DNA of 32,918 bases, from positions 1 to 32,918 of the forward strand of contig MEDY01000393.1 in assembly GCA_001724265.1 (NCBI GenBank). The letters run 5' to 3'. Positions 12,612 to 32,918 of the stretch are shown here, piece by piece; within the stretch, counting starts at the first letter, position 1; every line of letters begins with the position of its first letter. The notes beneath the pieces are model-generated. The model was not told where the DNA came from. It made no database searches and saw nothing but the letters and a program-made list of their open reading frames with translations. The stretch is from Rhizaria sp. SCN 62-66 (lineage: Eukaryota). The position numbers and the translations under genes are program-made.

Positions 12612-15600
12612 TTAGACGAAGGAGAAGGTGGGGCGGCCGGGCGTGGCGGTGGAGATGGGCCCGTCCTCGGTGGGCACGAACTCCTCGATCGTGGTCGTCT
12701 CGACGGTCACGCCGTCGATGCCGCGCACCAGGTAGCCGATGTGCTCGCGCACCGTCTTGACCTCGTCGAAGGGCATCGCCAGCTCGAGCGCCTGCGCGCC
12801 CTCCTCGGCGAACTGCGCGCGCACCGTCGACGCGAAGGCCATGGCGTTGGTGAGAAGCTTCTTCGACGCCGGCACCGCGGGGTCGACGGGGAACAGCGCC
12901 TTGACGGCCGCGTTGACGGGCGCGGCATTGGCGAGCGCCTCCTTCTTGTCCTCGCCGGGGAAGGCGGCGACGAGCGCGGCCAGCTCCGAGATGACCTTGA
13001 CCTGCCAGATGGGGTAGCCGGTCGCGACGCGGACGACGGCGCCTGCATGCGCCACGGCCGTGCCCTTGGGCGCCTTCTTGGCCTTGACCGTCAGCGCGCG
13101 CGCAGCGGCGCCGCGCAGGTTGGAGCAGAAGACAGAGATGTAGGCGGCCTCGCGAAGCAGCGCAGTGTCGGGCGCGGCCAGCACGGGCCAGGCGGCGTCG
13201 CAGACGAGGTCCACAGCGGCCTGAGCGTCAGCGAAGGCGGGGCGGATGAGGTCCCACATGGTCTGCGACCAGAAGGGGCAGATGGGCGAGAGCGTGACGG
13301 CGAAGACGCGCAGCCACTGCAGCAGCACATCCTTGTTCATGGGCACGGCGCCGCCGGCCGCCTCGGCACAGGCCGTGCGGTAGGCGTCGCGCACGTTGCA
13401 GAGCTCGTGGCAGGCCAGGCGCGAGGCGTCCATGATGCGCATCTGCTCGTAGGCCGTCTTGGCCTCAGCCACGATGGCCGCCGTCTGAGCAGAGAACACG
13501 CGGTCCCAGAAGGTCATCTCGCCGGAGCGCAGGGACGCATCGGCCAGAGTCTCACGCGCGAAGACGAGCTCCTTGGACAGACGCAGGATGGCGGCGTTGG
13601 CGACGAGCGATGAGAAGTTGGCGTCGTCGAGCGAGTCGCCGGCCGAGGCGAGGCCGAAGCGCGCGGCGTCGGCGCCGTACATCTTGATGGCGTCGTGCAG
13701 AGTGATGAAGGTGCCGTTTGACTTAGACATCTTCTGCCCGTTAATGAGCAGCATGCCGTTGGCGTAGTAGGAGCGCGGGAGCTTGTCCGCGCCCAGCACG
13801 GCCTCGTGGTTGTACAGAGTCATGACCAGGTGGTTGTTGAGCAGGTCCTTGCCGGACACGCGCAGGTCGAACGGGTACCAGAACTCGAACTCAGCGCGCA
13901 TGCGGTCGAGCGTCTCGCGCGCGATGCCGCAGTCCGCGGGGAATTCGGCGCCGGGCAGGAAGACGTAGCTGAAGACGGCGTCGGTGAGCTGCTCGGCCTT
14001 GACGCCCGCGGGGCCCTTGCCCTCGGTCATGGAGCCGCCCTGGAGGAGCGCAACGATAGTATAGTAGGCCATGTAGATGGTCGAGTCCGAGAGCGACTCG
14101 ATGAGCGGGTGGGCGGGGTCGAACTCCATGCGCGTGCCCAGCCCGAAGGCGCGCGAGCAGCCCCACTGGTGCAGCCAGCCGATGGTGAAGAGCAGGCGCG
14201 CGCGCACCGAGCGGTTGTAGGTCTGGAAGGCGTCCGACTCGGCGTGCGCGCGGATGGCGGCCTGCCACTCGGGCTCGCCGTACTTGATGGCCCACTGGTC
14301 GATGAGACCGACGACGCACTCCTCCTCCGTGCGCGAGATCACAATCGACTCGGGCTCGGCGTAGGGGAAAGCCAGCCCGTCGGCGATCATCGACGCCTTG
14401 ACGGCCTCCTTGACGTCCTTAACGAGGCTGCCGGCGTGGGGACCGACGATCATGACGCCCTTGTCGAAGCCGTACTTGTACACCTCGTCCTTGATCTTGG
14501 CGAGCAGCACGGCGTCGTTCTGCGACTTGACGCCATACTTCTTGCACAGCATCGGCGCGGCCTGGTCGGTCCCGTCGAGCTCGTCGATGCGAATAATGGG
14601 CACCACCTCGAAGGGCAGCACCATCTCGTCCTTGATGCCGAACTTGGCGCGAAAATCGGGCTTGTTCTTCATGTCCATCAGCGCCGCGTAGTCGGCGGGC
14701 GCGTCCGAGGGCACCGAGGTCACGATGCCCGTGCCCTTGTCCATCAGAATCGTCAGCAGAGGCAGGATGTAGACCTTCTCGTAGGACGTCAGCGGCGCCT
14801 TGATGGCGCAGCCGAGGAGGTGCTGGCCCAGCAGGTTGCCGAGCTTGCGGTTCGCGCACTCGCCCCACGTGAACGCGCCGGCGGGACCCTCGAAGGGCTT
14901 GAAGACGGCGTCCTGGAAAGCCATGTTGAGCGCGGAGCGGTCGGTGCACACGAAGACCTCGTTCTTCTGCGTGCGGTAGACCTGGTACTCGCCCGTGGGC
15001 AGCACGAACGCGTTGGTCTGGCCGTACATGGTCTCGGGGCGCAGTGTCGCCGCGGGCAGCACCACCTCCACGGGCGTCAGCTCGCCGGCGGCAGCGGCGG
15101 CGTCGCCAGCAGCGGATTCGACGGGCGCGAGGCCAGCGGCGGCGAGGAGCTCGGTGAGCGCGGCGGGGAAGGGCGCCTGCAGACGGAGCTTGATAGCCGT
15201 GTATGCCTGCGGCATGACGCCCTCGCCGTCGCCCTTGCGGTCGTGGTCCGAGCACACCTGCTTGTTCGAGGGCGTCATGATCGACATGAGCTTGCCGTAG
15301 GACAGCTTGTCCTTGGCGCGCAGCTGGTTGAACTGCCAGCGCACGAACGCGTCAAAGAACGGGTTCGCGTCCGTGGTGATGAAGGTGCGGCGCCAGTCAA
15401 CTGCGACGCCAAAGTCGTTCATGTCCTTCTGCGCGATGGGCGGCCAGTACGTCAGCCAGTGCGCGGGGTCGCAGAACTTGGCGATCTCGGCCTCGGGCAC
15501 GCCCATCTCGCGCATGATCAGCCACTGGTACGCGTGCCCGGACTTCTTGCCAGCGAGCTTGCCCTTCTTCTTGCGCTTCTTGTCCGCGGGCGCGGCTGGC

Positions 15601-16121
15601 GCGGCGGCGCCGGCGGCCTCGGGAGCGGCGGCCTCAGCGGCGGGCGCGGCGGGGGTCTCGGGCTCGTCGGCCTCCTCCTCGGCCTCGGCGGCCTTCTCGA
15701 CCGGGAACACGGGCGGGTTGCCGAACGCCGCGATCTCCTTCTGCAGCTTCTGCGCGCACGCCAGGATGGGCATGCCGGTGCAGTGGAAACCGAAGGGGAA
15801 GAGCGCGCGCTTGCCCAGCAGGCGCTGGAAGCGGACCATGAACTCGGCCTTGGTCATCGAGAAGGCGTGGCCCAGGTGCAGCGCGCCGTTCATGTACGGA
15901 AACGGGAACGTCACCATGAACTTGTTCTTGGCGGCCAGCTCGGCCGGGTCCGTCGGCGCGTCGACCTCGTAGGCCTTGGCGGCGCCCCAGCGCGCCTTGA
16001 CGCCCGCCTCGGCGGCGATGAGCTCGTCGCGGCGCTTCGTCTCGGCCGCGACCAGCGGCGCGGGCGCGGCGGCGGCGGCGGCGGCGACGGCGGAGGCATC
16101 AGTGGCGTCCTTAGAAGACAT
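12612..16121 (-). CDS. LARS1: Cytosolic (eukaryote/archaeal-type) leucyl-tRNA synthetase, ~1169 aa, no introns in the CDS
   Basis: FPFPYMNGALHLGH (HIGH), FHCTGMPI, CSDHDR, editing-domain ATLRPETMYGQTN and GTGIVTSVPSD, ESLSDSTIYMAYY, DLRVSGKDL, KMSKS. Start taken as ATG 16121-16119. Ends TAA. Confidence 0.97.
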   Translation of the reverse strand: MSSKDATDASAVAAAAAAAPAPLVAAETKRRDELIAAEAGVKARWGAAKAYEVDAPTDPAELAAKNKFMVTFPFPYMNGALHLGHAFSMTKAEFMVRFQRLLGKRALFPFGFHCTGMPILACAQKLQKEIAAFGNPPVFPVEKAAEAEEEADEPETPAAPAAEAAAPEAAGAAAPAAPADKKRKKKGKLAGKKSGHAYQWLIMREMGVPEAEIAKFCDPAHWLTYWPPIAQKDMNDFGVAVDWRRTFITTDANPFFDAFVRWQFNQLRAKDKLSYGKLMSIMTPSNKQVCSDHDRKGDGEGVMPQAYTAIKLRLQAPFPAALTELLAAAGLAPVESAAGDAAAAAGELTPVEVVLPAATLRPETMYGQTNAFVLPTGEYQVYRTQKNEVFVCTDRSALNMAFQDAVFKPFEGPAGAFTWGECANRKLGNLLGQHLLGCAIKAPLTSYEKVYILPLLTILMDKGTGIVTSVPSDAPADYAALMDMKNKPDFRAKFGIKDEMVLPFEVVPIIRIDELDGTDQAAPMLCKKYGVKSQNDAVLLAKIKDEVYKYGFDKGVMIVGPHAGSLVKDVKEAVKASMIADGLAFPYAEPESIVISRTEEECVVGLIDQWAIKYGEPEWQAAIRAHAESDAFQTYNRSVRARLLFTIGWLHQWGCSRAFGLGTRMEFDPAHPLIESLSDSTIYMAYYTIVALLQGGSMTEGKGPAGVKAEQLTDAVFSYVFLPGAEFPADCGIARETLDRMRAEFEFWYPFDLRVSGKDLLNNHLVMTLYNHEAVLGADKLPRSYYANGMLLINGQKMSKSNGTFITLHDAIKMYGADAARFGLASAGDSLDDANFSSLVANAAILRLSKELVFARETLADASLRSGEMTFWDRVFSAQTAAIVAEAKTAYEQMRIMDASRLACHELCNVRDAYRTACAEAAGGAVPMNKDVLLQWLRVFAVTLSPICPFWSQTMWDLIRPAFADAQAAVDLVCDAAWPVLAAPDTALLREAAYISVFCSNLRGAAARALTVKAKKAPKGTAVAHAGAVVRVATGYPIWQVKVISELAALVAAFPGEDKKEALANAAPVNAAVKALFPVDPAVPASKKLLTNAMAFASTVRAQFAEEGAQALELAMPFDEVKTVREHIGYLVRGIDGVTVETTTIEEFVPTEDGPISTATPGRPTFSFV

Positions 16122-16788
16122 TAGATGCTGCGGGCAACGTAGGAGGGGAAATATGGAAAGCAGGGAAAGTCGAGGAGAGAGGAACAAGAGTGTGCGCGGC
16201 AAAGGATAGAACACAGATGAGCGCGGGTGTACGAAGGATTGCGGAGACACAATTTTGAAAGAATACATCGCATGTTAGCATGACAGAAAATAACAATGAT
16301 GTAGTAGAGCAACTATTGTGTCGTCAGATCTTATCAAAATATGATTATGAGACACATGAGCCCAGATATTCATCCCGCGAAACGTGCGTTTTGCGCTCTG
16401 CGAGGAGCGAGGAGGGTCACGATCACGAAAAAGAGTGGACAGACGAGCCACTAGTAGCTGTGCGCAAAAAATATAAAAAAACTACTTGTGGTGGACCCAA
16501 AAGTTAGGTCGGCTGTCTGGTCGGTTGGTGGCCGAACCAGGCGCCATCTTCGCCACTTTGTTCTGGCTGCTAAACGCGTTCAACGGGTTTTCGTCAATCG
16601 AATCGGACACTTTCTTTGTCTTAATTATTTCGTTTTGTTTGTAATCTCGAAAGAAGACTGCTAATGACCTCTGCATTGGTCTAGCGGAAAGATCCGGTTT
16701 CGCCCTCTCCACATCACACACACGTCGCTCACCTCCACAACTTGCTTCCTCACTTTCTCGCCCTCTGCATCTGCTGCTGCAGCAAGAG

Positions 16789-19278: not shown

Positions 19279-21282
19279 ATGCCTCCCGCTGCCTCTGCTG
19301 CCCCCGCACCTGCGGCGCCGGGCCGCCCGCTGCGCATCGCGTTCCTGCACCCCGACTTGGGCATTGGCGGCGCGGAGCGGCTGGTGGTGGACGCTGCGCT
19401 GGCGCTGCAGGAGTGCGGGCACCTGGTGGACATCTTCACTTCCCACCACGACCCGGCGCACTGCTTCGAGGAGACGCGCAACGGCACGCTCCGCGTCTTC
19501 GTCTCGGGCGATCACCTCCCGCGCTCCTTCTTCGGCGCCGGCGCGATCCTCTGCGCCATCCTGCGCAATCTCTGGGCGGGCTGCTCGATCCTCTCCTCCT
19601 GGTGCGACGCCGGCCCCCAGCTCAACGCCGCAGGCACGGCCCCGCTGCCCGGCGTGCCGCTGGCCAACTACGACGTCTTCTTCGTTGACCAGCTCTCGAT
19701 CGCGCTCCCACTGCTCTGCGCCGCGCCCGCGACCGCGCGCTCCTTCTTCTACTGTCACTTCCCCGATCAACTACTGACCCGCCGCACGTCGCTGCTCAAG
19801 CGGCTCTACCGCCTGCCCTTTGACGTCGCCGAGGAGCTCACCACGGGCGCCGCCGACGCCATCGTTGTCAACTCGCGCTTCACGGCGCAGACCTACGCCG
19901 CCACGTTTGCCCGCCTCGCCGCGCGCGGCCCGCGCTGCCAGCCCGCAGTGCTGTACCCTTCGATCAACTTCGCGCGCTACGACGACAACCGGCGCTACGA
20001 CGTGGCGCTGGCCGCGCTGCTCGGCCGCTGGGCCGTCGAGACCGGTTCCGTCGAGACCGGCGCAGTCAAGACCGGCGACGCCGACGCGCTCGCTGCGTTC
20101 ATCGCCAGGCTCGAGGCCGTGCCAGCGCCCCTCCCGACCCCGCTCTCTAACAGCAACAACAACAACAATAACAAGACTGGGGATGTTGTTGCTGCTACTG
20201 TTGATCTGGACACTGCGTTCGAGACGCAGACGCCTCTGTCGGCGTTCGTCTTCCTGTCTATCAACCGCTACGAGCGCAAGAAGGACATTGGCGTCGCCGT
20301 GCGCGCCTTTGCCCTGGCCAAGGCCGCCGGCGCGCTGCCCTCCCGCGCCGCGCCCGCGGTGCTCCACACCAGCGACGGCTTCGTCAACGGCGGCAAGAAC
20401 AACATCGATAACATCAGCGGCGGCAGCGCGGGCGTCGGCGTGGTGCGCCGCGTGTTTACTTCCGCTCGGCTGGTCGTTGCGGGCGGCTTCGACCCGCGCG
20501 TGGAGGAGAACTTCTCCCACCACGCAGAGCTGCGCGCGCTTGCCACCAGCCTCGGGCTCACAGTCACGGACTACCCCTACTTGCCTCCCGGCACCAGCGC
20601 CGCCGCCGTCACTGACACCGCGGCCGCGTGGGACGCCGCTGCGGACGTAGTGTTCGTGCGGTCCTTCACGGAGCCGCAGCGGCAGTCGCTGCTGCGGCGC
20701 GCGCAGGCCGTGCTCTACACGCCCACGGGCGAGCACTTCGGCATCGTGCCCGTGGAGAGCATGTTCGCGCGCCGGCCCGTCGTCGCGTGCGCCTCGGGCG
20801 GGCCGCTCGAGAGCGTCGCCACGTCGCTCGGCACCGCCACCGGGGTGCTCTGCACGCCCGGCAGCGCCGAGTCCTTCGCAGAGGCCATGGGCCGACTCGC
20901 GCGCTCCACAACGGCGAGCAAGAGCGAGAGCGAGAGCAGTGATGTGAGCGGGAGTGTGAAGCAGCTGTCCGAGGTGGCCGCGATGGGCGACCGTGGGCCG
21001 GCGCACGTGCAGCGGCTCTTTTCCTTCGACACGTTCAAGCAGCAGCTCCAGGGCCACGTCCTTGCGCTGGCTGCCGACGGCGCCCGCGCCGCTGCCAAGG
21101 ACGTCGGTGCGGAGGAAAGCGGGTCGTATGGGCCCGCGCTGAGGCGCGCATGGGCGCGGCTGGGCAGCTCGCCGCGCGGCCGGCTAGCGGCCGTGGGCGT
21201 CGTGCTGGGCGCCGTGTTCGCGCTGCTCTTTCTGCTGTTCGCGGTGGTGCTCACCCTCGTGCTCAGCGCTCTGCTCAAGTGA
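19279..21282 (+). CDS. ALG2: Alpha-1,3/1,6-mannosyltransferase ALG2 (GT4)
   Basis: IAFLHPDLGIGGAERLVVDAA, FYCHFPDQLL, VNSRFT, FLSINRYERKKDI, EHFGIVPVESM and a C-terminal TM segment. Ends TGA. Confidence 0.95.
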   Translation: MPPAASAAPAPAAPGRPLRIAFLHPDLGIGGAERLVVDAALALQECGHLVDIFTSHHDPAHCFEETRNGTLRVFVSGDHLPRSFFGAGAILCAILRNLWAGCSILSSWCDAGPQLNAAGTAPLPGVPLANYDVFFVDQLSIALPLLCAAPATARSFFYCHFPDQLLTRRTSLLKRLYRLPFDVAEELTTGAADAIVVNSRFTAQTYAATFARLAARGPRCQPAVLYPSINFARYDDNRRYDVALAALLGRWAVETGSVETGAVKTGDADALAAFIARLEAVPAPLPTPLSNSNNNNNNKTGDVVAATVDLDTAFETQTPLSAFVFLSINRYERKKDIGVAVRAFALAKAAGALPSRAAPAVLHTSDGFVNGGKNNIDNISGGSAGVGVVRRVFTSARLVVAGGFDPRVEENFSHHAELRALATSLGLTVTDYPYLPPGTSAAAVTDTAAAWDAAADVVFVRSFTEPQRQSLLRRAQAVLYTPTGEHFGIVPVESMFARRPVVACASGGPLESVATSLGTATGVLCTPGSAESFAEAMGRLARSTTASKSESESSDVSGSVKQLSEVAAMGDRGPAHVQRLFSFDTFKQQLQGHVLALAADGARAAAKDVGAEESGSYGPALRRAWARLGSSPRGRLAAVGVVLGAVFALLFLLFAVVLTLVLSALLK

Positions 21283-21932: not shown

Positions 21933-24900
21933 TCAGGCCTTAAAGTTCTTGAGGAAGGGCTCCTCAAAGATGGCCAGCACGTCGGGCCGGTCGCTGGGCG
22001 CCAGAGACAGACACTTGCGGATGAAGTCCTTGGCGGCCTCGGACACGATGGGCTTGGCGGGGAACTCAACGGTCAGCTTCGCGGCGGCCGCGGCAGCCGT
22101 GGCGCCCGCGCCGGCCCCCGCGGCGCCGTGCGCCATCATGAGCTCGACGCCCGCCTGGCCGGGGCCGAAGGGGCGGCGGCCAAAGAGCATCTGGAAGAGG
22201 ATGACCCCGCAGGACCAGACGTCGACGGCGGCGGTGATGTGGGGCCGGTGCGCGGTGACGAAGCACTCGGGCGGCAGGTACGGCAGCGTGCCCGCGCCCT
22301 GCGACGTGAGCTCGATGCTCATCTCCTGCTCGTCGACCAGCTTCGACAGCCCGAAATCGGTGATCTTGACCTCACCCTTGTGGAACAAGATGTTGGCCGG
22401 CTTGAGGTCATAGTGAATCACCTTCTTGCGCTGCTCGTTGAGGTATTTGAGCGCGGAGAACACCTGCATGATGATGATGCGAGCCTCGCGCTCGGCCAGC
22501 GTGTCGTGCTCCTTGAGGTACGAGTCCAGGTCGCCGTCAGCGCACAGGTCCAGCACAGTCACCAGCGTCGACGAGTCGATTTTGAACACGTCCGTGAGAC
22601 GCACCACGCGCGGGTGTTGGAGCTCGCGCTGGATGGCGCTCTCGCGCATCACATGCTTCAGGTAGTTGCGCCGCCGGTCCTCGGACCACGATGCGTTGAG
22701 CTGGTGGATCTTGCAAGCCACGAAGCGCAGCTCTTGAAGGTCGTAGGCGCGGAAAACTTCGGAGAAGCCGCCCTTGCCGAGCATTTCGAGGAATAGGTAG
22801 CGCTGGTCGATGATGTGGTAGCCGGCAAACTTGCTCGCGGCCTCGTCCAGGAAGAGCCGCTCGGCCTTGATGAGCTTGCGCTTCTGCAGCTCCAGCTCCT
22901 CTAGCTGCACCTGCAGCGCGGCCGTGTCGCGCTTGTTGTTAGACAGCCGCTGACGGAAGACCTCGTCTAGTTCGGCCGCGTCGTGCGCGCTCATGCTCGC
23001 TGACACGACCACGCCGCCCGGGGACACGAAGCTGCCCGCCTCGTCCGCCGCCGTCGTCGACATAGCTGCGGCAGATGCAGTCGCCGCGGAGGCGGGGGCC
23101 GAGGGCGAGTCCGAGGTGGCGATGCCGGAGCCGCCGGAGACGAGGTCAAGCAGCTCACCGTCGGACATGAGCTCGCCCGCCGCCGCGGCCGCCGCGGCCG
23201 CCGCCGCCTGCTGCTGCTGCTTGTTGGTCTTCTTGGTTTGCAGCGCGCGCACCTTCTGCAGCCGCTTGCGCGCGGCCTCGACCTCGTTGCGCTCCTCGGT
23301 CAAGGCGCGTAGCCGCTGCGAGGCCTCCTTGAGCAGCTCGCCGTCCTCCCACGCCTCCATGCTGCCCATGCCGCCGCCGCCGCCCGCCGCGCCCGCCGCG
23401 CCCGCGCCCGCGCCGCCGTTGCCTGCGCCGGCGATGTGGACCGCGGCGGCGTCGTAGAGCACGACGAGGCGGCCGATGCTGGCGCGCTTGCTCTGCAGCG
23501 TGCGGTCCAACTCGCGTCGCGCCTTGCTGGCGAGCGCGCGCATCGTCTCCACCAGCGACGCCGTGGCCTCGCTAGCGCGCTCCTGCGCCTGCCGCACCTG
23601 CGCCTGCAGCGCGGTCGCCGCGTGCTCCTGCTGCATCTGCCGCAGCTCCCACTCGCGCGCGCGCGCCGCGGCCTCGGCCGCGGCCGCCGCGGCGGCGTCG
23701 GCTGCGCGCGCCGTTGCGGCGGCCTCGATGGCGGCCTCGCGCGCAGCGAGCCGCTCCGAGAGCAGCGCCTTGATGCGCGCCACCTCGTTCAGCAGCAGCG
23801 GCTTGAACTGGTCCGGCAGCGTCGTCAGGCCGGCTGCAGCGCCATTGCCGTTGTTGTTGGTATTGCTGCCGTTGGGGCTAGCTGCCGCTGAAGAGGCTGA
23901 GGAGGACGCGGACGCGGCGGCGGCGGCGGCCACGGCGGCGGCGGCGTTGGCAACCGACGCCGTCGCCGCCGAGGGGTAGAATGTGGGCCCCTCGTCCTCG
24001 ATCACCACAGCGGTGTTGTAGCTGCTGCCGCTGCTGCTGCTGGGGCCGTTGCCGTTGAACAGCGCAGTGCCAGTGCCAGCGCCAGCGCGCGAGCTGGAGC
24101 CGGACGCGAAGGCAGGCGCTGGCGCGGGCGCGGCGCGCTTGCCGGGGGTCACCGACGACGACGATGCAGACGCAGAGGTCGAGGACGACGAGTTGTGGCT
24201 GCGAGAGAAGTACTTGGTGATGGACGACTTGCTGCGACTCTCAACGCTGTTGGCGCCCCCACCGCCGCCGCTGCCGCCGCCAGCAGCAGCCGCGGCGGCG
24301 GCCGAGTTGGGGCTGGGGCTCGGGTTGGCGTTGGCGCCGGTGCTCGCTGCGTGGCCGCCGCCGCTGCCGGTGGCCGGGGGCGTGGAGTCAGTCCCGGCGC
24401 GCGGCTTAGAGGGGGACAGGTACGCGCTCTCAGTCGCGCTCGCAGTCGCCGCCACAGAATTCGCTCCAGTGCCTGCAGCGTTGGGGTTGACCAGCAGCAC
24501 GTCGTCGTCGTCCTCGTCCTCGCCGCCGCCGTTCGCATTGCTGCAGCCCGCAACAGCGTTGTGGATGATGCTGGGCATCGCGGGGACTGCGCTGGCGGTC
24601 TTGGAACGCTTGGGGGGCGCGCCGCCCTTGCGGCCGTCACTGCCGCCGCGCCCGTCGCTGCCCCCGCGCGCGCCACCGCCGGACGCCGGGGGCGCCGAGG
24701 GCGAGGCCGCAGTGGCCGCGGTGGCAACCACGGACGCTACTGCAGTGGGCGTGGTCGCAGCGGCAGCGCCGGCGGCCGAGGCAGCGGGGTTGGGGGAGGC
24801 GGCGTTGGTCGGCGACACGGCGGGAAAGAGCGCCACGGCGGGGTGCGCGGGCAACGCGGCCGTGGATGCCGCCGTCGAGGTCGAGGCCAGCAGCGGCAGC

Positions 24901-25319
24901 GGCGGGCGCTTGGCGGAGCCGTGGTGGCTGCCGCCGCTGAAGGCGCCGACGTCGACGCCCACCTGCGCCAGCGCGCCCGCCGCGCCGGAAACGCTGCGCG
25001 AGCGCAACAACATGTCGTCCTCGACGGCGAGGAGCTTGTGCTCGACGCCATTGACCTCGCCGCGGCCCGTTGCGGTGTCGAACCGGAACGCGGGACGCGG
25101 CAGCGTGCGGGGCGCGGCCGCCGAGGACGACGACGAGGCGTCGGCTGCGGCGGCAGAATTGCCGGCATTAACGGCGCTCGGTGCAGGACCGATGCCAAAG
25201 CCGATTTGTGAGTGTCCGTCGGTAGAGTCTCCGGCAAGACGCGCCTCGAGAAGGTGCATTTTAGCCGCGTTGCTCAGGAGTTCCGCTGCGTGCGAGGAGT
25301 GCTGTGAGTTGTCGCTCAT
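21933..25319 (-). CDS. TLK: Tousled-like Ser/Thr kinase
   Basis: N-terminal LLEARL motif, coiled coil, EAWEDG, and kinase domain LGKGGFSEVFRAYDL, VACKIHQLN, IHYDLKPANIL, KITDFGLSK, ELTSQGAGT. Start taken as ATG 25319-25317. Ends TGA. Confidence 0.95.
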   Translation of the reverse strand: MSDNSQHSSHAAELLSNAAKMHLLEARLAGDSTDGHSQIGFGIGPAPSAVNAGNSAAAADASSSSSAAAPRTLPRPAFRFDTATGRGEVNGVEHKLLAVEDDMLLRSRSVSGAAGALAQVGVDVGAFSGGSHHGSAKRPPLPLLASTSTAASTAALPAHPAVALFPAVSPTNAASPNPAASAAGAAAATTPTAVASVVATAATAASPSAPPASGGGARGGSDGRGGSDGRKGGAPPKRSKTASAVPAMPSIIHNAVAGCSNANGGGEDEDDDDVLLVNPNAAGTGANSVAATASATESAYLSPSKPRAGTDSTPPATGSGGGHAASTGANANPSPSPNSAAAAAAAGGGSGGGGGANSVESRSKSSITKYFSRSHNSSSSTSASASSSSVTPGKRAAPAPAPAFASGSSSRAGAGTGTALFNGNGPSSSSGSSYNTAVVIEDEGPTFYPSAATASVANAAAAVAAAAAASASSSASSAAASPNGSNTNNNGNGAAAGLTTLPDQFKPLLLNEVARIKALLSERLAAREAAIEAAATARAADAAAAAAAEAAARAREWELRQMQQEHAATALQAQVRQAQERASEATASLVETMRALASKARRELDRTLQSKRASIGRLVVLYDAAAVHIAGAGNGGAGAGAAGAAGGGGGMGSMEAWEDGELLKEASQRLRALTEERNEVEAARKRLQKVRALQTKKTNKQQQQAAAAAAAAAAGELMSDGELLDLVSGGSGIATSDSPSAPASAATASAAAMSTTAADEAGSFVSPGGVVVSASMSAHDAAELDEVFRQRLSNNKRDTAALQVQLEELELQKRKLIKAERLFLDEAASKFAGYHIIDQRYLFLEMLGKGGFSEVFRAYDLQELRFVACKIHQLNASWSEDRRRNYLKHVMRESAIQRELQHPRVVRLTDVFKIDSSTLVTVLDLCADGDLDSYLKEHDTLAEREARIIIMQVFSALKYLNEQRKKVIHYDLKPANILFHKGEVKITDFGLSKLVDEQEMSIELTSQGAGTLPYLPPECFVTAHRPHITAAVDVWSCGVILFQMLFGRRPFGPGQAGVELMMAHGAAGAGAGATAAAAAAKLTVEFPAKPIVSEAAKDFIRKCLSLAPSDRPDVLAIFEEPFLKNFKA

Positions 25320-25913
25320 GTTGCCCCCACACACCCCGTCCGGAGCTATACAAAGTCTGAAAAGGAGCTATAAAAACAAATTATACATTAAAAACACGTG
25401 TAAGTCGCCTTTGCAAAGTCAAACCGCTTTTTTAATGGGCTTTCACGGCATACAACCATGATTCAGTTTGGGCGCGAGAGTGGATCTGACGGCGCGCTCG
25501 GCGACCGCTCAGCACCGGTCGAACACCAGCTGATCGAGAGCCTGCTGGCAATCTGGCCCGTTGTGTGGTGATCTTGAGACATGCCGCAACCGGCCTCAGT
25601 GACCGTCTTTTTGTAAATCAGTGGTACTTTGACAAAGAATATCTTTCTGGATTTCTGTTCACTTTTCTTTCTTTTCTTTCTGTGCTCTGGAACAGCTTCT
25701 TTCCTCCACATCCGCAGGACACGAACGTTCCGTTAAAACGCGTTTGTCGCTTCCGTCCGTTTGTCTTGTAGCAGACGACAGTCCGGTCTGAGCCCGCTCC
25801 CACAGGCTTGCCCCGGTTTTCCACCGCCGCGTAAAGCGTCCCCTTTGCCACACTTGCATTCGCGTTGACCGCGCCCGCGTTGCCTCGCGCCGCCAGCAGC
25901 TCCGCCAGACACC

Positions 25914-28832
25914 ATGGTCCGCATCAGCCTTAAGGGTGGCGTGTGGAAGAATAATGAGGACGAGGTCCTCAAGGCGGGCGTCATGAAGTACGGCAAGAAC
26001 AACTGGTCGCGCGTCGCCTCGCTCATCAACGGCAAAACGCCCAAGGAATGCAAGGCGCGCTGGTTCGAGTGGCTGGACCCCTCGATCAAGAAAACTGAAT
26101 GGACGCGCGAAGAGGAAGAGAAGCTGCTGCAGCTCGCCAAGATCTTCCCCGCGCAGTGGCGCACCATCGCGCCCATGCTCTCGCGCACCGCGCACCAGTG
26201 CATTGACCACTTCCGCCTACTGCAGGACACGGCGCTCCAGCGCGAGCGCGCGGCCGCAGACCCGACGGGCGCGGCTGCCGCGCTAGCGGCCTCGGCCACG
26301 GGCGTGGGCGCGCGGCGCCTGCTGCCGGGCGAGATCGACCACGCGCCCGAGACGAAGCCCGCGCGGCCGGACCCCGTGGACATGGACGACGAGGACAAGG
26401 AGATGCTGCAGGAGGTGCGCGCGCGCCTGGCCAACACCAAGGGCAAGAAGGCGACGCGCAAGGCCCGCGAGAAGCACCTCGAGGAGGCGCAGCGGCTGGC
26501 GCAGCTGCAGAAGCTGCGCGAGCTCCGCGCCGCGGGCATCGACGCCAAGGCGCGCGTGAAGAAGAAGGGCAACGAGATCGACTACGCGGCTGAGATCCCG
26601 TTCCACCACGCCGCGCCCGCCGGTCCCTTCGACACGGCCGGTGACCGCGAGCGCGCCGAGGGGCTGCGCGCGGCCGCCGCGGCCGGGTTTATCGGCGCTG
26701 ACGTGGGGCAGCTCAACGGCGAGAGCGCGGCGCAGCGCGAGGCACGCGAGCGCGTCAAGGACGCCCAACGCGAGCGCGTGCACCGCGAAACGGCGTTGCC
26801 GGCGCTCATCCAGCGCCTCAACGCTGCCAACGACCCCGCGCAGATCAAGGCTCGCGCGCCGCTGGCGCTGCCCGCGCCCCAGGTCTCGGGCCAGGGACTG
26901 CAGGCGCTCGCCCGCGCGGGCGCGCTGGCGGCCGCGCTGGCCGACACGGCGCGCGCCGCCGCGGCGGGGGCGCTGGTCACTGGCGTGCGCGGCGGCGTCA
27001 GCGACGCAGACCACGTCATGCGCGAAGTGTTGACCATCACCAAGCTCCAGAAGGGCGGCGACGCCGCCGCTGATGATGCTGCGGCTGCGGCAGTCGACTC
27101 TGCACTCAAGACTGGCTTCACTGGCGTCGTCGCCGCCCGCACCAAGACGGCCGCGCACACCGCCGCGCCCCTCGCCGCCGCCGCCGCCGCCGCCGCCGCA
27201 TCTGCTGCGACTGGAGCAGCGCCCGGGCCGCGCCCCAAGGCCCTTGCGCCGCGCAGCGCCGCCGCGGCCGCGGCCGCCGCGGCGGAGCAGTCGCGCAAGC
27301 GTCTGCGCTCGCTGTTCGCTGCGCTGCCCGCGTCCGAGGGCGAGTACCAGCTGGTGTGGCCCGAGCTCCCGCGCCTCGACGCGCGCGACACCGCCGCCGC
27401 CGCCGCCGCCACTGCGGGCGCGGGCGCGGGCGTGACCCAGCTGCTGCACACGGCGAGCGCGGGCGCGCTCGCCGCCGCCGTGGCCGCCGCGGGCGACGAC
27501 GACGACGACGAGGACGCTGAGGCCAAGGCCGGCCGCGCTCTTGCCGCGCGCGCGCTGGCCGCCGACCGCGCCGTGCGCGGACTCCCCGCGCCGCTGCCGC
27601 GCGCGCTGCCGCGGCCCACGCGCGTCAACGCTGCCGCCGGCGCGGGCGTTAACGAGGCGCTCGCCGCCCTCGCCGCTAGCTCTGCCACTGTGACCCCGAC
27701 TGTGGACGCGGACGGCTGCCCGCCTGAGGTGGCCGCCGCCGTGGCCGCCGCCGCCGCGGCCGCCGCCGCCGCGCTGGCCGCCGCCGCTGACTCTGACGCG
27801 GCCAACCTGGCCCGCGCGCGCGCCGCCGTAGCCGCGGAGACGGTCGTGGTGCTGCGCCGCGCGGCCGCCGCCGTGCCCGCCGCGCTGACCGAGCCCGCGG
27901 CCGCCGCGCCGCCCGCCAGCACGACCGGCGCTGTGGCGCTGCCGCTGCCCGCCGCGGCGCCCGCGACGGCCGCGCTCAAGGCGCACGCGCTCTCCGTCGC
28001 CATGGCGGCCACCGCGGGCGCGCCGGCCGTGGTGCCGTTCGCGCCCGCAGCCGAGGACGCGGCGGCCGACGCCGCAGCGGGCGTGACGGCGGCCTCGCTG
28101 GCCCGCGCGCGCGCGCTGGTGGCGGCCGAGGTGGCCCGGGCGGGCGTCGCGGGCGCGCTGCCGCCCGTTGCCGCCGACCAGACCAGGGGGCTCTACATCC
28201 GCAGTGCCGACGCCGACGCCGACGCTGCAGCCGCTGCGGCTGCCGAGGCGGCGAGCGCGCGCGCGGACGCCGTGCTGCGCGCGGAGGTGGCCGCCGCGCA
28301 CCTGCTGTGCGAGGGCGACGCGCTGCTTTTCGTGCCCGCGACGAAGCGGTTCGCCGTGGCAGCAACGCTGGCGCCCGCGGCGCGCGCGGCGGCCGAGGCG
28401 CAGGCCGTGGCGCTGCTGCGCGCGCAGGAGGCGCGTCTGCGCGCCCGCGCCGACGCGCTGGAGCAGCGGCTGGGCGTCGTGCTGGGCGGTTACAGCGCCA
28501 AGATGGCCGCCGCGGACAAGGAGGCGCGCGCGGCGTGGGCGCAGCTGGGGCAGGCACGCACCAACGCGGCGTGCTACAGGCTCATGCTGGAGCAGGAAGC
28601 GAGCGTGACCGTGGGCGCGCGCGTCGCGCGGCTGCGCGCCATGGTCGACGCGCAAAAGGAGCTCGAGGCGGCGCTGCAAGCCGAGTACGTCAAGGGTGTG
28701 CGCGCGCTCGAGGACGCCGTTGACCGGGCCGCCGCTGCCGCTGCTGCTGGTTCTGCAGCTGCTGAAGCTAGCGCTGCGACGACCTCGGTCTCTGCGGACA
28801 GTGGGAGTGCTGTGGCGATGGCTGATCAGTGA
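25914..28832 (+). CDS. CDC5L: Pre-mRNA splicing factor CDC5L/Cef1 (Prp19/NTC complex)
   Basis: KGGVWKNNEDEVLKA and WFEWLDPSIKKTEWTREEEEKLL Myb repeats, PETKPARPDPVDMDDEDKEML, RARLANTKGKKA, IDYAAEIPF and a C-terminal coiled coil. Ends TGA. Confidence 0.96.
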   Translation: MVRISLKGGVWKNNEDEVLKAGVMKYGKNNWSRVASLINGKTPKECKARWFEWLDPSIKKTEWTREEEEKLLQLAKIFPAQWRTIAPMLSRTAHQCIDHFRLLQDTALQRERAAADPTGAAAALAASATGVGARRLLPGEIDHAPETKPARPDPVDMDDEDKEMLQEVRARLANTKGKKATRKAREKHLEEAQRLAQLQKLRELRAAGIDAKARVKKKGNEIDYAAEIPFHHAAPAGPFDTAGDRERAEGLRAAAAAGFIGADVGQLNGESAAQREARERVKDAQRERVHRETALPALIQRLNAANDPAQIKARAPLALPAPQVSGQGLQALARAGALAAALADTARAAAAGALVTGVRGGVSDADHVMREVLTITKLQKGGDAAADDAAAAAVDSALKTGFTGVVAARTKTAAHTAAPLAAAAAAAAASAATGAAPGPRPKALAPRSAAAAAAAAAEQSRKRLRSLFAALPASEGEYQLVWPELPRLDARDTAAAAAATAGAGAGVTQLLHTASAGALAAAVAAAGDDDDDEDAEAKAGRALAARALAADRAVRGLPAPLPRALPRPTRVNAAAGAGVNEALAALAASSATVTPTVDADGCPPEVAAAVAAAAAAAAAALAAAADSDAANLARARAAVAAETVVVLRRAAAAVPAALTEPAAAAPPASTTGAVALPLPAAAPATAALKAHALSVAMAATAGAPAVVPFAPAAEDAAADAAAGVTAASLARARALVAAEVARAGVAGALPPVAADQTRGLYIRSADADADAAAAAAAEAASARADAVLRAEVAAAHLLCEGDALLFVPATKRFAVAATLAPAARAAAEAQAVALLRAQEARLRARADALEQRLGVVLGGYSAKMAAADKEARAAWAQLGQARTNAACYRLMLEQEASVTVGARVARLRAMVDAQKELEAALQAEYVKGVRALEDAVDRAAAAAAAGSAAAEASAATTSVSADSGSAVAMADQ

Positions 28833-29391
28833 GTGAGTTGTGTAAGCAATGATGCCTTTTTGAGTGGTGTCAATTTGTTTGTTTGTTGTTGCGGCGCTGT
28901 ATCATCCGTTTATTGTATTAAGCTAATTCATAAATAATAACTGTTCACTCGACAAGATATGATCCTCCTGTTAAGCTTAGCTATTACTGTTCTGCTCGTC
29001 TGTCACCGACCAGTTTGTTGGAACATATGTGCGTGACAAACAGTCATCATGAGCGCAAAGAGTATATCATGAATCGAATACCCACTCATGAAAATACAAC
29101 GTGAGGTATTAAGCTCCTACTCGTCGTATCATAAAGTGAAATCGACATCGAATAATTGCGCAGTGACGCCAGTGTAACAGAAAGACTTTCGGAGACGTAA
29201 CAGCCCCCAAGGAGTTCGTTTCAGTTGAACATCAAAGAACTAATATAAAACATTGTTTTAATTAAGAAATTGATAGATTAGTAAAGTATAATGTGTAACC
29301 TATTCCAGAAACAGTCAAAGTATATATGAAAAAAGTACATGTTTATATATTAAATTTCGGCACCAAAATTCATCAACTATAGATCCTTTCC

Positions 29392-29472
29392 GGTGTCGTA
29401 ACAAAGTGGTTACTGTGGAAGACTAGAAATCTTCTGCCTTCGGGCGCGTGAGTTCGAATCTCATCGACATCG
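29392..29472 (+). tRNA. tRNA-Ser(AGA)
   Basis: Acceptor GGTGTCG/CGACATC, anticodon arm GAAGA-CTAGAAA-TCTTC, long variable arm, T loop TTCGAAT, G73, T-run downstream. Confidence 0.95.
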
Positions 29473-29702
29473 TTTTATTTTTGTCGCTTCGCGCGGCGGC
29501 AAGTACTTTTGTTTTGCTTATCCCCGCCACGCGCACCACCGCCGCAAACTGTGGCGGTGGCTTCATGTTTAATTTTTCGGCCGGCAGAGTCATATTTCTT
29601 CTAGTCTACGCAAAGAGTTTATGAGGCAGCGGTACTGTGTTGGAACTCTGTAAATAAACCAAATGTGTCTTCAAATGTCATCAGGTTGTCTTACCTCGCT
29701 AA

Positions 29703-29783
29703 GGTGTCTTACCAAAGTGGTTACTGGGACTGACTACTAATCAGTTGCCTTCGGGCACGTGTGTTCGAATCACACAGACATCG
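29703..29783 (+). tRNA. tRNA-Ser(ACT), unusual anticodon, copy 1
   Basis: Acceptor GGTGTCT/AGACATC, anticodon arm ACTGA-CTACTAA-TCAGT (ACT at 29736-29738), variable arm TGCCTTCGGGCAC, T arm GTGTG-TTCGAAT-CACAC, G73, long T-run terminator. Confidence 0.93.
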
Positions 29784-29873
29784 CTCTTTTTTTTTTTGTC
29801 CCCGCCACGGTACCGCAGCCCCCCGAATAGTCACTGGAGCGCAAACTTTCAAAGCAACATAACAGCTCGCAAA

Positions 29874-29954
29874 GGTGTCTTACCAAAGTGGTTACTGGGA
29901 CTGACTACTAATCAGTTGCCCTCGGGCGCGTGTGTTCGAATCACACAGACATCG
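29874..29954 (+). tRNA. tRNA-Ser(ACT), unusual anticodon, copy 2
   Basis: Same cloverleaf, ACT at 29907-29909, variable arm TGCCCTCGGGCGC, T5 downstream. Confidence 0.93.
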
Positions 29955-30329
29955 TGTTTGTCTTTTTGTTTGGGCTTACGTTGCCCGCGCACGCAATCCT
30001 TGCTGCGCTCATGTGCCTGGACCTGGAGCATTCCTGTACTAGTATCATCTTTTTTTGTCCCACCGACCGACGGCCAATAGCAGTCACGCTTCCTATTAAT
30101 GCTACCGTCACCGGCAGACGCCGCACAGCCACAGTACCGGTTGCTCGCGTGCCAGACAACAGTGCAGTATTAATAACAATGTTTTCAGTGACGTTTCAAG
30201 TTGCGGCCGACAGTACACAGTTGCTGTGACCCTCAACCTATTTGCCTCATGTGCCCTGACTGCGACAGCTTGCTCACAGACGCGCTCTTAATGTTGCTCT
30301 CACTCAAGCTGCAGCAACCGCTGTCTACT

Positions 30330-30351
30330 TACTAGTACTAGTACTAGTACT
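30330..30351. repeat. Self-complementary hexamer microsatellite (ACTAGT)3+
   Basis: tactagtactagtactagtact. Confidence 0.8.
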
Positions 30352-30540
30352 GTGAAATCTGCGATAAAGAGTTGGCAGTGTTACGACCGATGACAACAGT
30401 GACTGTTGCTGATTCATGTGGATGGATCTTGTAATCTGTGACGGCTCTGGGGGTCTGCGGGGATCCAAAAAAGAATGAGCGGTCGGATGAGCGCACTGAA
30501 GGTGGGCGGATTCGGATTGCGAAATCCGACAAAAAGAAAG

Positions 30541-30621
30541 CGATGTCGATGAGATTCGAACTCACGCGCCCGAAGGCAGAAGATTTCTAGTCTTCCACAG
30601 TAACCACTTTGTTACGACACC
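30541..30621 (-). tRNA. tRNA-Ser(AGA), second copy
   Basis: Reverse complement of 29392-29472, with a T-run downstream on the minus strand. Confidence 0.95.
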
Positions 30622-31528
30622 GTATATATCCTGTCGAAACACGTTGTAAGGATTGAAAGGAGATGTCTCGGCGCGCCAAATTTAATGTATATATTATTAT
30701 CTGACTAAAAGTTTGTATTGGCGATTTCTCTACAGGATATGGTTATTAATCTGATTTAAACACATAATAATTAATATCAGTATAGATTTAACATAATAGC
30801 ATGCTTAGATATAAAGATCAACTCATCAAGCGACAGATACGGTTGGTTACGGCTCCTGCCGAATGAACTGAAACTACGCTCAATTTCATTGTTCACGAAC
30901 AAAATTACACAGATTTGTATCACGTAGACTCTCTTAAAATCAACAGCCGAAAAAAACGGCATATGTCTTGTTATCATTGGTTTTCGCGTGGTCACGCTAC
31001 TCCATCAAACTCAATGTCAACGATTTGTGTGCGTCGTATTCCCAGAAAAGAAGCGAGATAAGACTTTTTCCTTCATGCCTAACGCACAGCACCTAACGCA
31101 CAGCATTGTTCGGCCAACAATCAACACAGGCACATGCAAATCATTACAATCCAAGAACGATCCTGATTCGATTTTCATCAACAAACAAACTCACTCATCG
31201 TTCGCCGTTGAGCTTGACCCCAATAGCGTCTCTGTTTCCCTTAAGATCCCGTTCTGAAACTTCAATTTAAAAACAATGATCGCGTTTTTCTTTAAACTTT
31301 TCGTGCTCATAATACCTTTGCCAACATTGTAAAATGTTTACAAATGCCAAAGAACTTTTCAAAGCTTGGTTACATCAATTTTTGTTAACTTGAATAATTT
31401 ATAGGTCTTAATAGCTTAAATCTTCGGCAGAATGATAAGAAGTCGCCTTATTGCGGCATTGCGAATCTCGCAGCAATCGCTTACTTTTTGATCGCAGTTC
31501 TGGCTCGAATCTAAGATGTAAGCAACAT

Positions 31529-31609
31529 GGTGTCTTACCAAAGTGGTTACTGGGACTGACTACTAATCAGTTGCCCTCGGGCGCGTGTGTTCGAATCACA
31601 CAGACATCG
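31529..31609 (+). tRNA. tRNA-Ser(ACT), unusual anticodon, copy 3
   Basis: Same sequence as copy 2, ACT at 31562-31564, long T-run terminator. Confidence 0.93.
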
Positions 31610-32177
31610 TTCTTTTTTTTTTTGTTCTGCCCTTCCGCGCGCGCAACGCACCTGGCGCATGCCAAGATGTTTTTTTTGTTGTTGATCAATCGCCATTTCG
31701 AGAAGTTACTGAAGCACTGCTGATTGTGATCATGCTCGTTAGATCGTGGACGGACATGAACGAAGCAGTGGAGCGCGCGCAGTGCCACTGACAGTCATGT
31801 GATGCAGTGACAGACGTCGTTTCTACTATTGTACTAGTACTAAAAAGTAGTAACATTACTGTACTACCAATAGTAAGCTTACTTAATAAGCTTAACTGTT
31901 TACTTGTCCAAAAAGTAAATAGTGCCGATTGAAGGGTTCGGATGAGGAAGTACTGTAATCGACCAGAGATCAAGGTGTGTGTCCTTGGTGCCCACTGTGG
32001 GCATGTATTAAAATTAATAGAGCCACATGCCGTCCGCGAGCTTGGGCCGTCGAGGGTGTCGACTGCGCTGTGGGGGGCGGAACGCACCAAATTGGGCGTG
32101 TGCAAGTGCGAACAGCCAAAATTTTTTATGAAAAGCAGTCGCTTTGAGCGGCGGCTTGGGAGCGGGCAAAAAAAAGG

Positions 32178-32249
32178 TGCGCTATCCGTGAATCGAACAC
32201 GGCTCTAATCGTTGGCAACGATCAATCATAACCACTAGACCAATAGCGC
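32178..32249 (-). tRNA. tRNA-Gly(GCC)
   Basis: Acceptor GCGCTAT/ATAGCGC, anticodon arm GATCG-TTGCCAA-CGATT, T arm CCGTG-TTCGATT-CACGG, A73, T-run terminator. Confidence 0.93.
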
Positions 32250-32607
32250 TTTCAAATCAATGAATTGATGAGATATTCAAGTAAATCTTAGTTATATTAA
32301 CCATAGTTAAAAAAGAATTTGTCGATATATATCTTCATGAATACTTGTTGTTAACACATCGATAATTCCAAATTGTAAAAAAGTCATTGAAATGTCTTTT
32401 ATTTATGTGCTGACTTCATTCACCCAAATGTTCGGAGCCTTTCGCGGAACACCAATCATGGCAACGACCATCAAAGGAAGAAAACACAACGAGATGTATT
32501 CAATTTACTGTGTCTTGTTGAGACTACTTATTCTAAATAAAAGCATGAATATGAACAAAAGGCTAAATAACTTAAATTAAGGGTTGTCACGAAATAGTAA
32601 AGTGTGT

Positions 32608-32918
32608 TTACGTTTTGCCAAAGGCGTCGCCGCTCTGCGCCCTGTTAAACTCGTTGCACAACGACTTGACCCAGTAGCACGCACTGGCCTTGCCACCAAC
32701 GAGGTTGCGCACAGTCACCTTGCCCGCATCCCCATCAAGGAGCACCGGGACCGCGGTAGCCGTCCCGGCGCCAGAGCCCGCGCCGCCGGCAGCCCACACG
32801 CCAGCCCCGGCCGCCGCGGCCGCCGCGGCAGCCACGGCCGCGGGCGTGGGCGCCGCCGCGGAGCCCGCCGCGGCCGCAGTGGCCGCTGCAGTGGCCGCCG
32901 CCGTGGCCGCGGCCGCGG
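32608..32918 (-). CDS. 3' end of an Ala-rich protein that starts outside the window
   Basis: GC-rich open frame from the window edge ending ...GKVTVRNLVGGKASACYWVKSLCNEFNRAQSGDAFGKT, then TAA. Composition switches abruptly to AT-rich after the stop. Confidence 0.65.
   Translation of the reverse strand, partial: AAAATAAATAAATAAAAGSAAAPTPAAVAAAAAAAAGAGVWAAGGAGSGAGTATAVPVLLDGDAGKVTVRNLVGGKASACYWVKSLCNEFNRAQSGDAFGKT

Follow-up and report, generated by a model that had tools for sequence, protein, structure and literature searches.

Three intact tRNA-Ser genes with anticodon ACT in a contig of Rhizaria sp. SCN 62-66, and how AGC and AGU codons may be decoded

Introduction

How can a eukaryotic genome keep several intact serine tRNA genes whose anticodon starts with an adenine in the AGN codon box, where AGC and AGU specify serine and AGA and AGG specify arginine? 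This question is raised by contig MEDY01000393.1 of the assembly GCA_001724265.1 (Rhizaria sp. SCN 62-66), a stretch of 32,918 nt that was analysed as a whole and is hereafter called the window, since it carries three tRNA-Ser(ACT) genes. To our knowledge, the absence of tRNAs with adenine or inosine at position 34 (A34 or I34) from split codon boxes is among the most general regularities of tRNA sets, for which the miscoding expected from I34 is the usual explanation. A review lists ACT, the A34 anticodon of the AGN box, among eight universally missing anticodons (PMC8007984).

A preliminary description of this locus had offered three ways out: AGA is reassigned to, or ambiguously read as, serine; AGA is avoided so that the tRNA can be tolerated; or A34 is left unmodified or is modified differently. 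We show below that this interpretation is, as a whole, partly supported, and we discuss which reading of the locus agrees best with the tRNA genes, the codon usage and the metagenome contigs.

Identification of the tRNA genes

The presence of three intact serine-type tRNA genes with anticodon ACT was confirmed. ARAGORN, run on the whole window, identified six tRNA genes, all within its final 3.5 kb: two Ser(AGA) genes (29391-29473, plus strand; 30540-30621, minus strand), three Ser(ACT) genes (29703-29784, 29874-29954 and 31528-31610, all on the plus strand) and one Gly(GCC) gene (32176-32249, minus strand). The tRNA model of Rfam (RF00005, gathering score 29) recovered four of the six in a whole-window run with fast filters and all six in a focused run on 28800-32918, in which no seventh tRNA-like stretch was found. 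The features of the cluster are the following:

29392..29472, plus strand: tRNA-Ser(AGA) copy 1, the canonical A34 isoacceptor (ARAGORN; Rfam 51.3 bits)
29703..29783, plus strand: tRNA-Ser(ACT) copy 1, A34 at 29736 (ARAGORN; Rfam 51.6 bits)
29784..29797, plus strand: 3' trailer of Ser(ACT) copy 1 with an 11-T run, similar to an RNA polymerase III (Pol III) terminator (sequence)
29874..29954, plus strand: tRNA-Ser(ACT) copy 2, A34 at 29907, with a T5 run starting 10 bases downstream (ARAGORN; Rfam 51.7 bits)
30541..30621, minus strand: tRNA-Ser(AGA) copy 2, identical to Ser(AGA) copy 1 (ARAGORN; Rfam 51.3 bits)
31529..31609, plus strand: tRNA-Ser(ACT) copy 3, with the sequence of copy 2, A34 at 31562, followed by TTC and an 11-T run (ARAGORN; Rfam 51.7 bits)
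32178..32249, minus strand: tRNA-Gly(GCC), an ordinary G34 tRNA at the end of the cluster (ARAGORN; Rfam 55.2 bits)

ARAGORN found neither a Ser(GCT) gene, in line with the preliminary description, nor an Arg tRNA gene in the window.

Integrity and structure of the Ser(ACT) genes

Each Ser(ACT) gene has 81 nt, belongs to class II and presents the anticodon loop CT-ACT-AA (3/3 copies), and the RF00005 scores of the three copies (51.6, 51.7 and 51.7 bits) compare with 51.3 bits for both Ser(AGA) genes. The variable arm is composed of a 3-bp stem and a YTCG loop of 4 nt, and the final base of the genes is a guanine, the discriminator G73; a long variable arm and G73 are the identity elements of serine tRNAs. 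T-runs of 11, 5 and 11 residues lie within 15 bases downstream of copies 1, 2 and 3, respectively, and the T-loop GTTCGAATC and D-loop AGTGGTT motifs are the same in the Ser(ACT) and Ser(AGA) genes. With the A and B boxes taken as motifs, the Ser(ACT) genes appear to have the features of Pol III genes, namely internal A/B boxes and a downstream T-run.

A cloverleaf of 23 pairs was placed on all five serine tRNA genes of the window and all 23 pairs are standard in every one of them. Ser(ACT) and Ser(AGA) have 65 of 81 positions in common, and the 16 differences consist of six fully compensatory pairs (12 positions; 7:74, 10:25, 27:43, 28:42, 29:41 and 60:70 in raw numbering), one change from G:U to G:C, two anticodon positions (35 and 36) and one variable-loop position. 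The two types share A34, the variable arm, six of the seven acceptor pairs and the loop context C32-U33-A34 and A37-A38. These differences, with their six compensatory stem pairs, mark the ACT genes as a separately maintained isoacceptor and not as decaying copies; Ser(ACT) and Ser(AGA) look like two isoacceptor lineages under structural constraint. Minimum free energy folding of single copies recovered the acceptor, variable and T arms and not the D and anticodon arms, which were instead assigned through the covariance-model alignment.

Copies 2 and 3 are identical, and copy 1 departs from them at raw positions 48 and 55 (29750 and 29757), both unpaired and in the variable region, while the 5' flanks (60 bases) of the three copies show no relation. 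The signs of a pseudogene or of a tRNA-derived repeat were not observed: no pair is broken, the T-runs are kept and the copies differ at two unpaired positions. In all these respects, i.e., intact serine-type tRNAs with A34, serine elements and T-runs in the three copies, a body related to that of Ser(AGA) with compensatory changes, the two variable-region differences of copy 1 and the differing flanks, the preliminary description proved accurate.

Constancy of A34 in metagenome contigs

The region 29300-32300 also occurs in metagenomes of bioreactors, wastewater and activated sludge. The contigs of four runs, X1, X2 and X4 (DNA, from three studies) and X5, were aligned at 90% likeness with a reporting threshold of 1%, and the results given here concern the pieces listed in this alignment. 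No alternative letter at or above 1% was found at the three A34 positions (29736, 29907 and 31562) in the contigs of any run. An 82-nt unitig corresponds to Ser(ACT) copies 2/3 with no difference in X1 and X2, and a contig of X4 spans Ser(ACT) copy 1, with T to C at 29750 (variable loop) as the only other letter listed inside the gene. Similarly, an 81-nt unitig matches Ser(AGA) with no difference in X1 and X4. The flanks of the Ser(ACT) genes carry single nucleotide polymorphisms (SNPs) and indels. Since A34 is constant across the assemblies of three studies, it is not an assembly error. A G34 (GCT) variant with the Ser(ACT) body was not found in X1, X2 or X4 among the pieces listed, a comparison in which a Ser(GCT) with a different body would not align.

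In X2, we also observed a 1,246-base contig, at single-copy depth, that aligns at 31529-31617 and contains a serine tRNA whose loop reads as anticodon CGA. Its 3' half resembles Ser(ACT), with 11 other letters, and the Ser(CGA) gene of the organism therefore has the same body as Ser(ACT).

A metagenome scan with the D-arm pattern common to the ACT and AGA genes returned 18 loci. According to ARAGORN, 16 of them carry Ser(AGA), one carries Ser(TGA) and one (L009) has no tRNA genes other than Leu and Tyr; there was no ACT or GCT serine gene among the 18. A single one of these loci (L008; 2,918 bases, GC 0.62) has a Ser(AGA) gene, at 526-608, that is identical to that of the window and lies in different flanks. 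It contains no other tRNA, its Ser(AGA) gene adjoins an Ala/Ser-rich open reading frame (ORF) of 598 amino acids, and it represents another locus of this organism or of one very close to it. The tRNA-pattern scans gave no match in prokaryote genome contigs (two scans) or in viral contigs (one scan). Between 29805 and 29905, depth was absent from every run, which we attribute to a repeat effect of short unitigs and do not count as a finding.

Use of the codons of the AGN box

Codons were counted in eight ORFs of the window (6,055 codons). The AGN box is represented by AGC (123), AGT (14), AGG (8) and AGA (3), and among other codons CGC occurs 258 times, TCG 145, TCC 94, TCT 49 and TCA 13, so that AGY codons (137 in total) are about as frequent as TCT and TCC together (143). 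AGC makes up 90% of AGY (123/137), and the AGT share of 10% lies within the 7-17% share of T in the other two-codon Y boxes; thus, codon usage is not adapted to a reader of U only.

One of the AGA and two of the AGG codons precede the first ATG of the ORF concerned, which leaves two in-frame AGA codons, and AGA accounts for about 0.03-0.05% of codons. Both in-frame AGA codons are located in non-conserved loops of membrane proteins, one of them inside an Arg-rich run. AGR represents 11 of 333 Arg codons (3.3%) vs 26 of 577 Leu codons (4.5%) for TTR, and because these two rarities are similar, the scarcity of AGA is explained by GC bias and not by specific avoidance. Among the three earlier proposals, the data agree best with a form of the second, AGA avoided in order to tolerate the tRNA, in which the scarcity itself (3/6,055) stands but the direction of cause is reversed.

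Meaning of the codons of the AGN box

Four proteins of the window, namely leucyl-tRNA synthetase, ALG2, tousled-like kinase and CDC5, were aligned with 119-150 homologues each. The AGC codon at residue 141 of tousled-like kinase (TLK; a 440-residue piece) falls in a column that is serine in 140 of 148 sequences and the one at residue 512 of the mannosyltransferase ALG2 in a column that is serine in 77 of 119. AGC, present in two conserved Ser columns, therefore means serine, and AGY is read as Ser. A reassignment of AGC was considered, since R, T or D stood opposite each of the first four AGC codons that fell in conserved columns. It was rejected in view of the two AGC codons in conserved Ser columns, and because a single step separates AGC from CGC, ACC and AAC.

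As for the other half of the box, AGG at ALG2 residue 622 corresponds to arginine in 4 of the 5 homologues with a residue there, and no AGA codon lies within the four alignments. Nothing supports a reassignment of AGA to serine, and the corresponding proposal of the preliminary description gains no support from the two in-frame AGA codons, given their non-conserved loops and the Arg-rich surroundings of one of them.

A proposed mechanism for the decoding of AGC and AGU

We hypothesize that a functional tRNA-Ser with the anticodon ICU decodes AGC and AGU, that the code is effectively standard and that this tRNA is tolerated since GC bias has nearly removed AGA, a reading to which we give an even chance of being correct. 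It builds on what was observed, i.e., the genes, their integrity and multiplicity, their constancy in the assemblies of three studies, the codon usage and the meaning of AGC. The three genes would be expressed and would encode a functional cytosolic tRNA-Ser with the genomic anticodon ACU, in a genome that may lack a Ser(GCU) gene, and seryl-tRNA synthetase (SerRS) would charge it with serine. SerRS does not read the anticodon, and an ACU-bearing serine body is expected to carry serine because serine identity lies in the long variable arm and G73.

The deaminase ADAT2/3 of the organism, for whose presence the two Ser(AGA) genes are the only indicator, would then convert A34 of Ser(ACU) to inosine. 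Ser(AGA) is a standard eukaryotic A34 tRNA, whose deamination is required to read TCC. ADAT2/3 was described as selecting its substrates by tRNA shape and A34, independently of sequence (PMC9643335), and at gene level Ser(ACT) has what this rule asks for, an encoded A34 and a normal anticodon loop of 7 nt. I34 is thus the likely state of Ser(ACU), since the enzyme is sequence-independent and Ser(ACT) has its loop context and 65 of its 81 bases in common with Ser(AGA).

The ICU anticodon would read AGC and AGU, and this tRNA would be the main, perhaps the only, decoder of AGY. It would also read AGA, weakly, and the cost of I34 in a split box, namely the misreading of AGA (Arg) as Ser, would be negligible because AGA is nearly absent. 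In Escherichia coli, an unmodified ACU anticodon read AGU (9.4%), with AGC and AGA below detection (PMC11066159). Such an unmodified ACU would serve 14 of the 137 AGY codons, and therefore I34 is needed for use on AGC; the suggestion that A34 is left unmodified fits poorly with 123 AGC vs 14 AGT codons.

The multiplicity of the genes was also estimated from depth. The Ser(ACT) unitig has a depth of 95.1 in X1, where unique flanks have 26-41, and of 24.6 in X2, where flanks have about 7; in X1, the Ser(AGA) unitig reaches 243.8 and Gly(GCC) 336.7. These values suggest that the sequence of copies 2/3 occurs 2-4 times in the genome, in addition to copy 1, and that there are about 6-8 Ser(AGA) genes, with unitig depth being a rough measure of dosage that may be inflated by other organisms with the same tRNA sequence. 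Several ACT gene copies suit a load of AGC and AGT better than one of AGT alone (14 codons).

Several points weigh against this reading, among them the roughness of the depth estimate. The prior against a functional case is high, because A34 in this box is called universally missing in the review cited above (PMC8007984), and a Ser(GCT) with a different body, located elsewhere in the genome, may do the AGY decoding. AGY codons are depleted at conserved Ser columns, in which 2 of 33 AGY codons fall, compared with 40 of the 127 remaining Ser codons (Fisher p = 0.003); measured against well-aligned non-Ser columns only, the figures are 2/33 vs 15/77 (p = 0.09). With 2 AGC vs 55 TCN serine codons in the whole ORF of leucyl-tRNA synthetase (LeuRS), AGC looks like a non-preferred codon, found mostly in fast-evolving, low-complexity stretches. 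This depletion fits a wobble reader and equally a weakly expressed or minor tRNA. Finally, contig assembly drops rare variants and the alignment covers only the pieces listed, and the sole possible RNA run, X5 (judged probably DNA), gave no cover of the ACT genes.

Alternative explanations

The alternative that survives best, unlikely in our view and still to be taken seriously, is that of a minor, redundant isoacceptor: a Ser(GCU) elsewhere would read AGC and AGU, and the ACT genes would be expressed with A34 unmodified or partly modified, adding slight AGU-reading capacity at no real cost. The restriction of unmodified ACU to AGU (PMC11066159) and the depletion of AGC at conserved Ser columns agree with it, as do the Ser-ACT genes that human and Schmidtea sporadically have next to a normal tRNA set (PMC6779403; PMC2770079) and the situation in Bacteria, where A-starting tRNAs of two-codon boxes are sporadic and always stand beside a G-starting tRNA (bioRxiv 10.64898/2026.05.15.725136). 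However, at least three copies would then be kept for a codon used 14 times in 6,055, no G34 variant with the same body was found among the pieces listed in three metagenome runs, and evading a sequence-independent ADAT2/3 would need a special antideterminant, since Ser(AGA) must be modified.

The ACT genes may also be neutral or silent, if they stem from the local duplication of a G34A or anticodon-shifted variant that is untranscribed or harmless, with canonical genes elsewhere doing the decoding. Eukaryotic genomes commonly contain anticodon variants of their tRNA genes, which mutate fast (PMC3923123), and all three ACT genes lie within 2 kb. Against such relaxed copies stand the 23 of 23 pairs intact everywhere, the confinement of the sole two inter-copy differences to unpaired positions, the retained T-runs, the 81 nt kept though the flanks have fully diverged, and a gene sequence that is constant in the assemblies of three studies next to flanks with SNPs and indels. 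We regard this explanation as improbable.

A true change of the code, in which an I34 tRNA-Ser reads AGA as serine, by reassignment or ambiguously, and tRNA-Arg(UCU) has been lost or weakened, has in our estimate a slim chance. ICU could pair with AGA, the near disuse of AGA is the state expected just before or after codon capture, and the depletion of AGY at conserved sites is a hint that the history of the AGN box was disturbed. Against it, the two in-frame AGA lie in non-conserved loops and the one in the Arg-rich run fits Arg better than Ser, the share of AGR among Arg codons (3.3%) beside that of TTR among Leu codons (4.5%) has its explanation in GC bias, and 4 of the 5 homologues with a residue opposite the AGG of ALG2 residue 622 have R. 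We know of no nuclear reassignment of AGA on record, although no search aimed at it was made.

Just as doubtful is a scenario in which Ser(ACU), converted to ICU, is the only AGY decoder of the lineage and descends from the Ser(AGA) family, through an anticodon shift that followed the loss of Ser(GCU), with AGA being Ser or unassigned; the A34, variable arm and six of seven acceptor pairs common to Ser(AGA), the AGY depletion and the near-vanished AGA are weak hints in this direction.

An assembly or sequencing artefact at position 34 has a practically negligible probability, given three loci in the window and the same base in the contigs of three independent studies, which bears out the earlier judgement that a one-off error is unlikely.

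The source organism and neighbouring genes

The large genes of the window (1-29000) are all uninterrupted ORFs with long Ala-, Ser- and Gly-rich insertions and are found on both strands; the GC-rich composition also yields long spurious antisense ORFs. In addition to three ORFs for membrane proteins, the following genes were recognised:

12612-16268, minus strand: LeuRS, uninterrupted ORF
19279-21282, plus strand: ALG2 mannosyltransferase, uninterrupted ORF
21933-25334, minus strand: TLK, uninterrupted ORF
25914-28832, plus strand: CDC5, uninterrupted ORF

The source is a compact, apparently intron-poor microbial eukaryote, GC-rich and uncultured, from wastewater. The best named match of LeuRS is from a euglenid transcriptome (EukProt; 46% identity), and the protein is about 41-46% identical to those of algae, diatoms, animals and others. 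ALG2 points towards early fungi and Amoebozoa and CDC5 towards plants and stramenopiles. Metagenomic proteins reach 57-72% identity to LeuRS, CDC5, TLK and ALG2, and the proteins of the window have no close named relative. The eight ORFs end in TGA (5) or TAA (3), and none in TAG.

Two further observations concern the metagenome contigs. A short tandem repeat of the ACTAGT type at 30329-30352 is a microsatellite that varies between strains, at which the X1 and X4 contigs stop or diverge, with loose ends at positions 30327 and 30351, and near which 10 bases are missing from X5 (at 30326). In L014, a further contig of GC-rich and eukaryote-like character, ARAGORN called at 2351-2439 (minus strand) a tRNA of unknown type with the four-letter anticodon gtta, clustered with Leu(TAA), Gln(CTG) and Ser(AGA), which may have an eight-base loop or be a mis-call.

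Significance and comparison with known systems

If the Ser(ACT) genes are functional, a lineage with several intact copies would be a natural test of the I34-miscoding explanation and, if our reading is true, the rule against A34 in split boxes would relax once the endangered codon, AGA, is nearly gone through GC bias. Near-absent AGA is also the state that the codon-capture model predicts as a step towards reassignment, and Ser(ACT) would provide a natural substrate with which to examine whether any A34 tRNA is modified by ADAT2/3. Should Ser(ICU) be the only AGY decoder and AGA have changed, the lineage would offer the first case both of a nuclear change in the AGN box and of an I34 tRNA in a 2+2 split box. 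Were the genome to contain a normal Ser(GCT) set elsewhere, Ser(ACT) would be an unusual but harmless extra isoacceptor.

Ser(ACT) resembles the eukaryotic cytosolic tRNA-Ser(GCU) in being of class II, with a long variable arm and G73, and in its AGY codons, and U36-A37 fits codons that start with A. It differs from Ser(GCU) in having A and not G at position 34, and no G34 version of its body was found in the window or, among the pieces listed, in the three runs. The eight eukaryotic substrates of ADAT2/3 are the tRNAs for Thr, Ala, Pro, Ser-UCN, Leu, Ile, Val and Arg-CGN. With these, Ser(ACT) shares the gene-encoded A34, the loop context and 65 of 81 bases of Ser(AGA), and C35 as in Arg(ACG). 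Unlike them, since they serve four-codon boxes or the three-codon box of Ile, it sits in a 2+2 split box, in which I34 would also touch an Arg codon.

The same anticodon on a serine-type gene is found in human tRNA-Ser-ACT-1-1 and in Schmidtea Ser-ACT (PMC6779403; PMC2770079). As described there, human Ser-ACT is a single locus in a variant table, with its variant marked 'No' in the last column (PMC6779403), and Schmidtea Ser-ACT is one line in a tRNAscan survey (PMC2770079), whereas here three intact copies score like Ser(AGA). A multi-copy intact or functional nuclear Ser(ACU) was not found in our literature search, within the parts of the sources available; supplementary charts (PMC8007984; bioRxiv S10-S12) may list exceptions.

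A parallel for a fixed change of position 34 comes from Bacteria, where replacements of G34 by A34 (Leu-AAG and Thr-AGT, in Lactobacillales and Mollicutes) are fixed in a lineage and possibly carry inosine, as may be the case here. The fixed bacterial replacements were described only in four-codon boxes and in AT-rich genomes, whereas the Ser(ACT) genes belong to a split box and to a GC-rich eukaryote (bioRxiv 10.64898/2026.05.15.725136).

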